A stretch of DNA of 60,789 bases from Streptococcus mitis (GCF_003942695.1 NZ_RJNU01000011.1:1-60789); one strand, 5' to 3'. Positions 33,530 to 38,638 are shown, counted from the first letter of the stretch. The notes: generated by a model from the letters alone, not told the origin. Numbers and translations are program-made.

Positions 33530-33615
33530 TTTTCTCTCACTTTGAATAAATAGATAGCTATATTATACTAGATTTCAAGCTATTTCTCCACAGTTTTATA
33601 ACTATCCCACAAGCA

Positions 33616-33683
33616 AATTGTGATTTGTCGACCTGAGCCACAAAGTCTGCGAACTCGTTTTGGAGGGAAAGAGGGGGGAGGAT
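33616..33683. repeat. 68-bp hsdS C-terminal conserved repeat, copy 1 (direct repeat of 36051-36118, about 93% identical)
   Basis: aattgtgatttgtcgacctgagccacaaagtc...agaggggggaggat is present in both hsdS' and hsdS in the same orientation. Confidence 0.8.
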
Positions 33684-34111
33684 GAAATCTAGTTCACTAT
33701 ATTGTTTTGCATTAATATTTGGCTGCGCAACTGCATTCTGAACTTTAGCAATAAAATCATTATAGTACTTTGTCTTTGTAAAGTGATAAACAAAAATAGG
33801 GTTCACTAGGGAATGATTAGGTATCAGTCTAATCAAGTATCCTGCATATAGTGCCGGACCATGCTTCTTCTTCGAATATAAAAAAGTTTTACCAACTGTA
33901 GCACCACTTCGAGCAAACAATATATCACCTGTATTTAATAAATATTTTTCGTCAAATTGGCTAGGTGATTTCTTTTCAGGTTTTAAATTTCCACAAGTAT
34001 CAATATCGGTTATACGAATATATCTTAATCCTGAAAATTCAATTGCTGACGCGCCTGAACCGTATGCTAACTTTTCTACTGATATATCTTTTAATCGACA
34101 TCTTTCCCAAC

Positions 34112-34162
34112 CCATATCATTCAAAACAGGATCCCCAAACATCTCGTTAAATCGGGATTTGC
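34112..34162. repeat. 51-bp hsdS central conserved repeat, copy 1 (identical direct repeat of 36543-36593)
   Basis: cccatatcattcaaaacaggatccccaaacatctcgttaaatcgggatttg occurs identically at both sites. Confidence 0.85.
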
Positions 34163-34164
34163 AT

Positions 34165-35130
34165 TTAAGAGATGAATTTTTGGTGCGAATATTTAACATT
34201 GCTTTGGTTGACCATGGCATAGGCAAGGGTAGTGTCAATTTTGCTGTGACCTAGTAGTCTTTGGACTTGTTCGATAGGCATTCCTTTATCAATCGCCTTA
34301 GTCGCTAAGGTTCTTCTGAATTTATGTGGATGAACCTTTTGTATTCCAAGTTTATGTCCTAACTTTCTCAATCGAATCTCGACACCCGCAATTCCAAGTC
34401 TCTGAGCTTTTCCAACTAGCGTTACAAAAAGAGCAGGATAGCTATCTTTTCTATCATTGAGATAGTTTCTTAAATGAATTTTCGTACGAGCATCAAAATA
34501 TACGGGTCTTTCTTTTTTTCCTTTTCCAAAAACAACACACTCTCTGTTTTCAAAATCGATATCAGAACGATTCAATTGGACCAGTTCTCCTACACGCATA
34601 CCTGTTGATGCTAGTAGGTCAATCATTGCCAAATCTCTTAAATTTTCACAGTTATCCCGCATAATTTCCAGATGTTCATCCGTATAAGTTTCTTTTACAG
34701 TTTGTTCTGTCTTAATTTTTTTAATCCTTCGAATAGGATTCTTGATGATATATTCCTCTTGTTCAAGCCAAGCAAAAAAAGAAGACAATATACGCCGAAT
34801 ATTATCCAAATTCGCCTTACTACAGTCCTTTTCAGACTGATAATTTGCTAGATAACTTCTTAAATCATCTGTTGTCAGTTGTGTCACAGACTCCTTACTA
34901 TGATGAAACAAATTTTCAATTGTTCTCTGATAATAACGTATTGTTTTTGCGCTACAGCCCTCCACCTGCTTAGCAGTGATGAATAGTTGCAACAGATAAT
35001 TATTCGAATACTTTTGCTGCTTTTTTCCATCCACTAGATGGCGTTCTAAACTCTCTCTCAATGCTAGTAATTGTTCATTGTTTAAAAGTGGTAACATTTC
35101 TTGTATGATAATTGTAACTTTTGATTCCAT
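34165..35130 (-). CDS. Tyrosine site-specific recombinase (XerC/D family; RM-locus shufflon recombinase, TvrR/CreX-like)
   Basis: 321 aa with a catalytic R..HxxR..Y arrangement. Embedded between hsdS and hsdS'. Confidence 0.85.
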   Translation of the reverse strand: MESKVTIIIQEMLPLLNNEQLLALRESLERHLVDGKKQQKYSNNYLLQLFITAKQVEGCSAKTIRYYQRTIENLFHHSKESVTQLTTDDLRSYLANYQSEKDCSKANLDNIRRILSSFFAWLEQEEYIIKNPIRRIKKIKTEQTVKETYTDEHLEIMRDNCENLRDLAMIDLLASTGMRVGELVQLNRSDIDFENRECVVFGKGKKERPVYFDARTKIHLRNYLNDRKDSYPALFVTLVGKAQRLGIAGVEIRLRKLGHKLGIQKVHPHKFRRTLATKAIDKGMPIEQVQRLLGHSKIDTTLAYAMVNQSNVKYSHQKFIS

Positions 35131-35665: not shown

Positions 35666-35898
35666 TTTTCCACCAAAGCTTTGAAAACATCGTCGTATTC
35701 ATCAAAAATTGTATCCAATTTTAAGTTAAAGGCATCATCAGAAACATAAGAGACCTGATGATCCAATTCTTCAGGAGTAAAGATAATTTCACCGCTTGGT
35801 AACAATTTCGCTTCGTATTTAACACCACTTGGAATATTGAACTCGCTTGGAATCGTAATGGTGATTGAATTTCCTTGTTTTCTTGTTTTTACGACCAT
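35662..35898 (-). CDS. Phd/AbrB-type antitoxin partner of Doc
   Basis: 78 aa, SpoVT/AbrB-like N-terminus. RBS AGGAGG; 4-nt overlap with doc. Confidence 0.7.
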   Translation of the reverse strand: MVVKTRKQGNSITITIPSEFNIPSGVKYEAKLLPSGEIIFTPEELDHQVSYVSDDAFNLKLDTIFDEYDDVFKALVEK

Positions 35899-35980
35899 CT
35901 GATTTCCTCCTTTGAAGTATTATAACAAATAATTATGGTAATTACAATGATAGTGTAAAACTGCTATTTCATCTCGAATC

Positions 35981-37132
35981 TTAACCGAAATGCTCCTGCA
36001 TAAGTGATTTTTTCAAGGTTTCCAATTCTTCCAGAGATTTTTGAATTGCCAATTGTGATTTGTCGACCTGAGCCACAAAGTCCGCGAATTCGTTTTGGAG
36101 GGCTAGAGGGGGGAGGATTACTTTTAGTTCACTTAATATTTTTAAATTTATATTCTTTTGAGCTGATTCTGGAGCTTGACTTTCTAGCATCTTTTGAAAG
36201 TAACTAAACCAATAATGAATAAACATATTATTGGTTCTTTCTCCCGGAATAAAGCCAACAATGCTATCTGGAAAACATGAATCAAAAGCCAATATACTTG
36301 TTTTAGCTATATTAGCTGCGATAGTTATACATAATGTTCCTTTATCCCACAATTTACTTTGTTTAAGACCAAACTCAGAATATGTAGAATGATAATCTAC
36401 AATATAGTTTCCTGAATTAGCTACATCTCCTGTCTGTATAAACGGATAGATTCCTCCAAATAATTCCGAAGCGTTACGTGGTCTATACTTAGAAACACCT
36501 CTACCAATCGTTCCAACTTTATCTAGTGTTTCAATCTCCCACCCCATATCATTCAAAACAGGATCCCCAAACATCTCGTTAAATCGGGATTTGACGAGCT
36601 CGTTCAATTTTTTATTTTGTTCTTTACGACAGCAAATTAATCGTTCAATCAAATTTAACGTACTGGTAATCAACTCTTGTTGCTCAACTGAAGGATAAGC
36701 AATCTCTACTTTTTTTAACCAGTCTGTACTTAAATTTTTTTGAGCAACACCATTAGAACTTCTTATTGCTGACTGCTCAAACAGATCTGAATTAAGAAAT
36801 TGAAATACATATTCTTTGGAAATTAAACTATCAATAGTTCTTAAACAGGCAACCCGTTGATTTAACGCAGCAGGAAGCATTGTTTTACTTATTAATCCTA
36901 CTCTTCCAACATTTCCTGTTAAAGACATAAGCAAATCATTTTCTTTTAAAATATACTTCTCGATTGAATTTGTATATTCAATTGGATAGTATTTGGGATC
37001 ACTATCTTCGATGTATCCTTTTTGAACATTAGTAATTCTTATAATACGAATGCCTTCATTAACATATAGCAAACTCTTGAAGGCAAATCCATTTAATATC
37101 TCACAAACTTCCCCCAACTTCACTTTTTTCAT
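35981..37132 (-). CDS. hsdS: Type I restriction-modification specificity subunit (two TRDs)
   Basis: 383 aa with TRD1, a central SRFNEMFGDPVLNDMGWE repeat, TRD2 and a C-terminal LQNEFADFVAQVDKSQ repeat. Confidence 0.85.
   Translation of the reverse strand: MKKVKLGEVCEILNGFAFKSLLYVNEGIRIIRITNVQKGYIEDSDPKYYPIEYTNSIEKYILKENDLLMSLTGNVGRVGLISKTMLPAALNQRVACLRTIDSLISKEYVFQFLNSDLFEQSAIRSSNGVAQKNLSTDWLKKVEIAYPSVEQQELITSTLNLIERLICCRKEQNKKLNELVKSRFNEMFGDPVLNDMGWEIETLDKVGTIGRGVSKYRPRNASELFGGIYPFIQTGDVANSGNYIVDYHSTYSEFGLKQSKLWDKGTLCITIAANIAKTSILAFDSCFPDSIVGFIPGERTNNMFIHYWFSYFQKMLESQAPESAQKNINLKILSELKVILPPLALQNEFADFVAQVDKSQLAIQKSLEELETLKKSLMQEHFG
36051..36118. repeat. 68-bp hsdS C-terminal conserved repeat, copy 2
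   Basis: See 33616-33683. Confidence 0.8.
36543..36593. repeat. 51-bp hsdS central conserved repeat, copy 2
   Basis: See 34112-34162. Confidence 0.85.
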
Positions 37133-37144
37133 ACATCCATCTCC

Positions 37145-38638
37145 CTACTTGAGTAATTCTTCTAACTCTGCCAAGCCAGCTTGAATTTCTTTTTCTAGAT
37201 CATTAATTTTCTTTAAGATGACTTCTGTTGGTTCATACTCAACTTTTTCATACTCAATTTCTTTGTATTTATTGATCGATAAATCATAATCATTATCCTT
37301 TATCTCATCGACTGGAACAAAGAAAGACTGGTCCGTTCTCTTACGTTCTGCTTCGTTGTCAAGTTGATGGAAACGTTGAATAATATCTGGAATATCATTA
37401 TCACTGATCGGTTGTCGTTTATCATCCAAACTTAAACCATCTGCTTTCATATCGTAAAACCAGACCTTATCCGTTCCACCATTTCCAGTTTTTGTAAAGA
37501 TGAGAATGGCAGTTGAAACTCAAGCATAAGGTTTGAAAACGCCACTTGGCATTGATATTACAGCATCCAATTTATGATTCTCTACAATTTCCTGACGAAT
37601 TCCTTTATGGGCTTTAGAAGAACCAAAGAGGACACCGTCAGGTACAATAACTGCTGCACGTCCCCCTGGTTTCAATGTACGCAAGAAAAGAGCAAGGAAA
37701 AGCAATTCTGTTTTTTTGGTTTTTACAGTCGCAAGAAGATCATTTGAAGTTGAATCGTAGTCAAGCGATCCCTTAAATGGAGGATTTGCTAGAACTAAAG
37801 TGTATTTATCTGCTTCTTCATTATCTTGAGATAGTGAGTCAAGATAACTAATTTGTGGATTTTCCACTCCATGCAGCATCATATTCATTGCACCAAGTCT
37901 AAGCATGGTTGTATCCGTATCATTTCCATGAAACATATTGTTATGAAAATGGTTGATATTATCTGGATTGGTTTCCCATTCATCTTTTTTACGCTTTAGG
38001 TAGCGGCTAGCAGATACTAAGAAACCAGCAGACCCCATAGCAGGATCTGAGATAATATCCTTGATAGTTGGTTGCATCAACTCAACCATCATATCGATGA
38101 TGTGACGAGGTGTACGGAATTGTCCATTTTTACCTGCGGTTGACAATTTTGATAGCAGATATTCATAGATGTCGCCAATATCATTAATTCCCTGTGTGTC
38201 ATTATAAAAATCTATATCTGACCCTCTAGTTGGAAATTCATCTAATATAGAAATCACCTTTTGGAGCGTAGCAGGTTTATTAATTTGAAAGATAGCTTCT
38301 CGCATATAACGTGAAAAAGCTGTATCGTCAGTATCACCCTTAAGATTCTTCATAAATGGAAAAATCTCCTGGGTCATTAAACGATAGACTTCCTGAGCAT
38401 CTCCTATATTTTTAAAGGTTGACCAACGGTATTCAGGTTTGTCTTTTGGAAAAATTCCCTCATAAGAAATCCCTAAAAACTCAGCATCGCTTTCGCGTCC
38501 AAGTTCGACACTATCCAGATCCTTCATAAACAGAAGATAGGTCAATTGTTCAATATTTGTTAGAGGATTTGCATTTCCTTCAGTCCACAGCATTTCCCAC
38601 AGCTGATCGATTTTACTTTTTAATTCGCCTGTAATCAT
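37145..38638 (-). pseudogene. hsdM: Type I RM methyltransferase subunit HsdM interrupted by an in-frame TGA (codon 373 of 498)
   Basis: The N-terminal 372 aa (NPPF motif) end at PYA. A TGA at 37520-37522 sits where a Gly codon is expected. The same frame then continues VSTAILIFTKTGNGGTDKVWFYDMKADG... to the normal HsdM C-terminus. Confidence 0.7.

Follow-up and report, generated by a model that had tools for sequence, protein, structure and literature searches.

How does a type I restriction-modification (RM) locus exchange the segments that set its specificity when all of them lie on one strand? This question is raised by an hsdM-hsdS-hsdR locus with a tyrosine recombinase gene in its middle, which lies in a 60,789-nucleotide stretch of Streptococcus mitis DNA (GCF_003942695.1, NZ_RJNU01000011.1:1-60789; all of it is called the window here). 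We propose, with a probability of roughly 0.85, that it is a Streptococcus oralis-group locus orthologous to tvr (SpnIV) of the pneumococcus, that it has the '2+1' arrangement, and that it switches by excision and re-integration driven by the recombinase TvrR. As such, the locus is a further member of tvr in which the target recognition domains (TRDs) and a probably inactivating hsdM mutation are new; both its mechanism and the occurrence of tvr in some S. oralis strains are already in the literature.

All the genes of the locus are carried by the minus strand in the order hsdM-hsdS-tvrA-tvrT-tvrR-hsdS fragment-hsdR, according to open reading frames (ORFs) and domain profiles, and the same gene order is found in the Streptococcus pneumoniae locus L010 and in the S. 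oralis loci L001-L003. The latter belong to the nearest named genomes (including subsp. dentisani) and are 98% identical in the recombinase and 94-97% in the flanks; tvrA, tvrT, and tvrR are 96-100% identical to those of S. oralis loci. The S. pneumoniae locus presents 84-92% nucleotide identity to the window across hsdM, tvrATR, and hsdR (86-89% in one comparison of hsdM, the central genes, and hsdR), the values for the three central genes of L010 being 92% (tvrA), 89% (tvrT), and 89% (tvrR). Furthermore, positions 29520-46638 of the window are 100% identical to GCA_003942945.1 (RJOE01000016.1) and to the Logan assembly of SRR7532587. A first-pass annotation of this DNA had described a tvr-like locus with the order hsdM-hsdS-toxin/antitoxin (TA)-recombinase-hsdS'-hsdR. 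Both statements are borne out, the order by ORFs and domain matches, and the label by this order, the 89-92% identity of the central genes to those of the S. pneumoniae tvr, and the repeats and core that both loci share.

Two kinds of repeat link the complete hsdS gene, with its N-terminal TRD A and C-terminal TRD b, to the downstream fragment, which carries TRD c. The central repeat (repeat 1) covers 57 nucleotides (nt) with 1 mismatch (34105-34161 and 36537-36593), 51 nt of which are exact (34111-34161 and 36543-36593), and the tail-end repeat (repeat 2) covers 68 nt with 4 mismatches (33616-33683 and 36051-36118) and extends by weaker similarity to 107 nt at 85% identity, lengths that are far beyond chance. 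The first-pass annotation had reported a 51-bp and a 68-bp pair, both in direct orientation. The orientation is correct, with spacings of 2432 and 2435 nt and no inverted repeat in the locus comparable to the direct pairs; the 51-bp repeat is real, with its first copy placed one base off (34112-34162 gives 32 mismatches, and 0 after the shift), and the 68-bp repeat is real at the coordinates given, with 4 mismatches instead of 'about 5'. Switching by inversion, as in ivr, can be ruled out because there are no sizeable inverted repeats (the region 31000-42000 contains only imperfect inverted matches of 20-31 nt, at chance level) and all the hsdS segments are on one strand.

Both repeats contain a common 12-nt core, CAAATCMCRATT, which occurs four times in the 60.8-kb window versus 0.04 expected, always on the minus strand. 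Every central repeat has the core at its 5' edge, and every tail-end repeat has it at its 3' edge, and its four positions (Table 1) are the exact borders of the two C-terminal cassettes, b and c. Within cassette b lie the central repeat (36593-36537) and, at about 36124-36051, the tail-end repeat; cassette c begins 3 nt past the tvrR stop codon. The core is the counterpart of what Kwun et al. called the 'core repeat'. The peptide encoded by the TER region, LPPLALQNEFADFVAQVDKSQLAIQKSLEE, is the same as in pneumococcal TRD i (Kwun et al. 2018, Table S4).

The presence of these repeats would not by itself assign them a role in recombination; this role is shown by natural variants in which the cassettes have changed places. 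We recovered 10 contigs encoding an identical recombinase, and the variants were supplied by ENA and Logan contigs. Contig L081 has 2-3 base differences from the window over about 3 kb comprising ribF, hsdM, and TRD A (from about 39527 to the central repeat), and in it cassette c, 100% identical, is fused to TRD A in the expressed position. Conversely, in L082 cassette b, also 100% identical, lies between the recombinase gene and hsdR. When the four junction types were aligned, the single G/T variant of the central repeat and four variants of the tail-end repeat travelled with the cassette, whereas what lies 5' of the core in the central repeat, or 3' of the core in the tail-end repeat (tails 1 and 2), was bound to position in 5/5 sequences compared. 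Therefore, the exchanges took place within the 51-nt and 32-nt identical stretches, each of which contains a core site. The swapped contigs, together with the direct repeats and the orthology to tvr, support excision and re-integration, which the first-pass annotation had named beside gene conversion, rather than inversion.

Two other contigs are relevant to a circular intermediate. L083 (1-4434) presents the b-tail1, tvrR-c, c-tail1, and tvrR-b junctions in a single sequence, in the order b-tail1-tvrATR-c-tail1-tvrATR-b, which makes 1.8 turns of a 2435-nt period. L084 (1-2553) contains tvrATR and cassette c and closes on itself as a 2435-nt loop through an exact terminal overlap of 118 nt; its period equals the spacing of the tail-end repeats in the window. 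Either contig may represent a circle or a tandem, or else a path of the assembler through a mixed population. As proof of circles both were downgraded, since a mixture of two chromosomal arrangements gives the same junctions, and they are evidence only that the two arrangements co-occur. The Logan contigs of the isolate itself (L087, L092) end at the repeats and are uninformative on alternative junctions; Logan assembly uses k = 31, less than the length of either identical stretch (32 nt and 51 nt).

Cassette c is also found, 100% identical over 415 nt, in Streptococcus halitosis OM18-31A (L005, 6592-7006), where it occupies the expressed position and the N-terminal TRD beside it is another one, and this suggests that cassettes move between mitis-group species. 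As a separate observation, the comparison of window positions 39528-43127 with L081 1-3600 showed near-identity from ribF through tvr and differences of 3-13% per 400 nt in most of the SMC gene, a mosaic pattern which may have arisen by recombination or transformation where the locus ends.

The active site of the recombinase is complete. TvrR matches Pfam Phage_integrase (PF00589, 4.5e-34) and a SAM-like N-terminal domain, and reaches 248 bits with the XerA-type NCBIfam model (cut-off 220). Residues R179, H269, R272, H295, and Y304 line up with the solved XerA structures 4a8e and 5hxy, and the beta-hairpin GKGKKER at 202-208 aligns with the same two structures. An inactive enzyme lacking its catalytic tyrosine had been considered beforehand as a point that would tell against the excision hypothesis; the alignment identifies this tyrosine as Y304, and the objection therefore falls.

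The mechanism that we propose starts from the four directly oriented 12-nt cores that bound cassettes b and c inside central repeats of 51-57 nt and tail-end repeats of roughly 70 nt. TvrR would recombine two core sites and release a circle of about 2.43 kb containing tvrATR and one cassette, and re-integration at the other repeat type would leave b and c exchanged, so that the expressed HsdS would alternate between A+b and A+c, two candidate specificities. Expression of tvrR would be held low by a terminator-like hairpin and, by analogy with the pneumococcus, by TvrT. The switch hardware looks intact in this genome, and a GGA-to-TGA change in hsdM would make the RM output most likely inactive. 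The anatomy of the locus, its core sites, the catalytic residues, the conserved hairpin, and the swapped variants are observations of this work. The circular intermediate, the dependence on TvrR, and the regulation by TvrT are inferred from experiments in S. pneumoniae, where deletion of tvrR or of TER greatly reduces shuffling, circles have been detected by outward-facing polymerase chain reaction, the direct repeats (∼18 bp at the midpoint and ∼70 bp at the tail end) share a core of ∼11 bp, only the hsdS upstream of tvrATR is expressed, and three-cassette ('2+1') loci switch between two specificities (Kwun et al. 2018; PMC6265443).

Several points weigh against this proposal. The contigs L081-L086 are metagenome contigs from other samples and not reads of this isolate; the repeats are conserved central and C-terminal coding segments of hsdS, and conservation alone is no proof of a role in recombination; the central identity of 51 nt is much longer than the ∼18-bp midpoint repeat of the pneumococcus, and the effective site in it is inferred rather than mapped. 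Moreover, in the pneumococcus excision at long repeats partly persists without TvrR or RecA (PMC6265443). The cassettes could have been exchanged by general homologous recombination or gene conversion at the 51- and 32-nt stretches, which are long enough for low-frequency exchange, or by import of alleles through transformation, with little contribution from the recombinase. The rearrangements and long-repeat circles that to some extent remain in pneumococcal tvrR deletion mutants fit such a process, as do the mosaic SMC gene of L081 (0-13% per 400 nt), a sign that recombination of the transformation type does act in the region, and the identical cassette c beside another N-terminal TRD in S. 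halitosis. However, pneumococcal recA mutants still form circles and deletion of tvrR greatly cuts shuffling, and here the core is present at all four cassette borders, as expected of a site-specific target. The core also directly follows the recombinase stop codon in other genera, where the recombinases are only 60-73% identical, and the recombinase of the window has been kept intact with all its catalytic residues. For these reasons we consider homologous exchange an improbable explanation of the swaps, and prefer excision and re-integration by TvrR.

Whether the switch has any consequence in this strain is a different matter. The hsdM gene contains an in-frame TGA at 37522-37520, in codon 373 of 497 (the peptide reads PYA*VSTAILIFTK), and is called as two ORFs of 372 amino acids (aa; HsdM_N, N6_Mtase) and 101 aa (the C-terminal end of N6_Mtase). 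This codon is GGA or GGG (glycine) in 12/12 related loci. The truncation removes the last 125 residues, that is, the C-terminal quarter of HsdM. The C-terminal part of HsdM is needed for assembly with HsdS (M2S1), and the strain therefore probably neither methylates nor restricts through the tvr system, whichever cassette is expressed; in the same way, because of the nonsense codon, methylome profiling of this strain would probably show no tvr motif. Full-length HsdM, which a functional type I RM system requires, is lacking here. The TGA is present in GCA_003942945.1 and in the Logan assembly of SRR7532587, which probably represent the same isolate; an assembly error is unlikely, since the codon is reproduced by the independent Logan assembly, although the reads behind the two assemblies may be the same and could share a sequencing artefact.

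The truncation of HsdM at residue 372 of 497, seen in two assemblies, could be taken to mean that the locus is a dead remnant in decay, no longer under selection, whose hsdS fragment and repeats are leftovers and whose switching is of no consequence, all the more so as non-functional tvr loci are common in pneumococci (e.g., in D39/R6, or through insertions of integrative and conjugative elements in hsdM; Kwun et al. 2018, PMC6265443). We regard this as very improbable. The nonsense codon is recent, because only 2-3 differences, this codon among them, separate the window from the L081 haplotype, in which codon 373 is GGA and hsdM is intact; hsdS, tvrA, tvrT, tvrR, hsdR, the hairpin, and the four core sites are all intact. 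Furthermore, the pneumococcal isolate RMV9 shows notably high rearrangement without a functional methyltransferase, and therefore switching of the DNA can go on without RM activity. In any case, decay concerns the consequence of switching and not its mechanism, and it is partly included in our explanation of an intact switch with a most likely inactive output.

The role of the two small genes upstream of tvrR has to be considered within the excision/re-integration model. TvrT matches Pfam Fic/DOC (2.1e-14) and the NCBIfam DOC_P1 model (TIGR01550; 80.6 bits, cut-off 38.65), and its translation contains the Doc-type Fic motif HVFANANKR (pattern H-x-F-x-[DN]-[AG]-N-K-R). TvrA has no Pfam family at E <= 0.01, and so no Phd/YefM profile match, and its two NCBIfam matches are below threshold (MazE/PemI, 45.8 bits with a cut-off of 50; doc_partner TIGR02609, 22.3 bits with a cut-off of 55.9). 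Of the Phd/Doc pair named in the first-pass annotation, Doc is thus confirmed and Phd finds no profile match; TvrA may be called the partner of Doc by its position and its orthology to pneumococcal TvrA, 'Phd' being a positional label only. The same annotation had supposed that the pair stabilises the excisable segment, in line with the paper that named tvr, which proposed recombinase-driven excision and re-integration with a TA pair guarding against loss (Croucher 2014; PMC4263131). This function is not supported in the pneumococcus, where a marker in place of tvrT was kept through ten days' passage, tvrA could be deleted without growth collapse, and efficient deletion of tvrAT was possible (Kwun et al. 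2018; PMC6265443). TvrT rather lowers tvrR transcription, which rises 4-fold when tvrT is removed (Kwun et al. 2018; PMC6265443), and by analogy TvrT would repress tvrR also at this locus.

A second level of control may be exerted by the hairpin between tvrT and tvrR. Its RNA fold has z = -3.4 against shuffled sequences, a tract of five U follows it, and it matches the pneumococcal hairpin of 19 pairs and five U, whose removal raises tvrR transcription >40-fold (Kwun et al. 2018; PMC6265443). It has been kept in 12 mitis-group loci, S. pneumoniae included, with one compensatory pair and four G-U/A-U changes. Upstream of tvrA, the segment listed in Table 1 may act as promoter of tvrA-tvrT-tvrR, to judge from its match to consensus. 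A perfect palindrome, GTAATTAC, followed by GTAATTA, overlaps its -35 hexamer and spacer (35919-35960, minus strand), and the block CATTGTAATTAC.GTAAT.ATTTGTTATAATAC is conserved in 9 mitis-group loci; the palindrome could be an operator for autoregulation by TvrA/TvrT.

The features of the locus are collected in Table 1. The identity of TRDs A, b, and c to pneumococcal TRDs I-IV and i-iii does not exceed 33%, and the assignment of target motifs from the published pneumococcal TRDs failed at this level of identity. Independent expression of the downstream fragment as a half-HsdS is thought unlikely, because only 3 nt separate its start from the tvrR stop codon, its sole in-frame ATG has no spaced Shine-Dalgarno sequence, and it ends in a non-homologous tail instead of the C-terminal helix. 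This tail 2 holds a candidate hsdR promoter (TGGAGA, 17 nt, TATAAT; 33590..33562), identified by its match to consensus only, and hsdR itself is apparently intact. A gene for a nucleotidyltransferase of the RlaP family (PF10127; 29388-30161, minus strand) lies 17 nt downstream of hsdR. An Rfam scan of the window gave no match within the tvr locus; a single tRNA gene (44257-44328, minus strand) was the sole match in the window at the gathering threshold.

Table 1. Genes, cassettes, and candidate regulatory elements of the tvr locus (positions in the window; listed in the direction of the minus strand).
Feature	Position	Strand	Description
hsdM, type I methyltransferase	37145..38638	-	497 codons, split by in-frame TGA; Pfam HsdM_N, N6_Mtase
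hsdS, upstream copy with two TRDs	35981..37132	-	383 aa; Pfam Methylase_S in two stretches
Parts of the expressed hsdS	35981..37132	-	N-terminal TRD A, central repeat, C-terminal TRD b, tail-end repeat, position-linked tail 1
Mobile cassette b, 543 nt	36051..36593	-	core sites 36593-36582 (CAAATCCCGATT) and 36062-36051 (CAAATCACAATT)
Candidate tvrA-tvrT-tvrR promoter	35919..35947	-	TTGTAA, 17 nt, TATAAT with TG extension (TGtTATAAT); consensus scan
tvrA, antitoxin-like partner of Doc	35662..35898	-	78 aa
tvrT, Doc-family toxin homologue	35252..35665	-	137 aa; 4-nt overlap with tvrA
Attenuator-like hairpin and CUUUUUAUU	35158..35208	-	18 pairs (35208..35167), between tvrT and tvrR
tvrR, Xer-type tyrosine recombinase	34165..35130	-	321 aa
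hsdS fragment with a single TRD	about 33558..34161	-	Pfam Methylase_S, single stretch
Silent mobile cassette c, 546 nt, C-terminal TRD	33616..34161	-	core sites 34161-34150 and 33627-33616
Position-linked tail 2	33558..33615	-	non-homologous 3' end (…FACGIVIKLWRNSLKSSII*) replacing the normal HsdS C-terminal helix
hsdR, type I restriction subunit	30179..33529	-	1116 aa; Pfam HSDR_N, ResIII, Helicase_C, EcoEI_R_C

Beyond the mitis group, recombinases similar to TvrR (60-73% identical) were confirmed at 574 stretches across species-representative genomes. The loci are found in Clostridia, Erysipelotrichia, Negativicutes, and Treponema primitia, and present the order hsdM-hsdS-recombinase-hsdS'-hsdR. 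Among L017-L080, examples devoid of the TA pair are L018, L022 (2008-5007), L023 (2400-4130), L031 (3775-6026), L033, L051 (7318-9564), L056, and L059 (Holdemanella biformis DSM 3989); these TA-less loci contain no tvrA or tvrT homologue, and their hsdS-recombinase gap of only about 60-80 nt leaves no room for the pair. In them hsdS segments on the same strand flank the recombinase gene and carry both kinds of direct repeat known from tvr, central and tail-end, and the stop codon of the recombinase gene is immediately followed by the core (CAAATC.C.ATT). Only 3 of about 25 informative TvrR-like loci had an hsdS segment on the opposite strand. We found no experimental study of TA-less loci in the literature searched, which is not proof that none exists. 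All these data raise the tentative idea, which we hold nearly but not quite as probable as its opposite, that tvr is one TA-equipped branch of a larger and uncharacterised class of type I RM loci that work by excision and re-integration. If this were true, the exchange of cassettes through direct repeats would be a widespread form of RM phase variation, one to which surveys looking only for inverted repeats would be blind, and the TA pair would be a late regulatory addition in mitis-group streptococci.

For the window itself, the result allows the locus to be annotated as a phase-variable type I RM locus of the tvr/SpnIV type from the S. oralis group, and its importance beyond annotation is small. 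The natural variants from metagenomes indicate that the pneumococcal type of swap by excision and re-integration also takes place in commensal oral streptococci, and they narrow the exchange points to intervals of 51 nt and 32 nt with a common 12-nt core. In addition, the locus draws attention to a broad group of relatives in other Firmicutes that lack the TA pair and that apparently have had no experimental study.

Among the known systems, the tvr (SpnIV) locus of S. pneumoniae is the closest, as it has the same gene order on one strand, two kinds of direct repeat with a short core, a hairpin followed by five U before tvrR, a '2+1' arrangement, and an identical TER peptide. It differs from the locus described here in its TRDs, to which A, b, and c show the low identity given above, and in its central identical repeat, which is 51 nt here and roughly 18 bp at the pneumococcal midpoint. 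In addition, the downstream cassette of the two published pneumococcal 2+1 isolates is of the N-terminal type, whereas here it is of the C-terminal type and placed directly after tvrR, and the S. oralis-group host and the hsdM nonsense codon also set the locus of the window apart. The presence of tvr in S. oralis subspecies, Streptococcus infantis, and Streptococcus pseudopneumoniae has been reported previously (Kilian and Tettelin 2019; PMC6722419), and this is the same locus, with integrase, AbrB-type regulator, and death-on-curing genes interspersed, although that work gives presence or absence only and, for S. oralis, neither maps the cassettes nor describes core sites or variants of the arrangement. 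Finally, the ivr locus of S. pneumoniae (SpnD39III, or SpnIII) is also a type I RM system whose specificity changes by recombination between hsdS segments next to a tyrosine recombinase. However, in ivr and the other invertible hsdS systems the repeats are inverted and the silent hsdS copies lie on the other strand, and a single inversion is sufficient for them to switch, whereas the tvr locus described in this work has direct repeats only, and hence would need two events, excision and re-integration.

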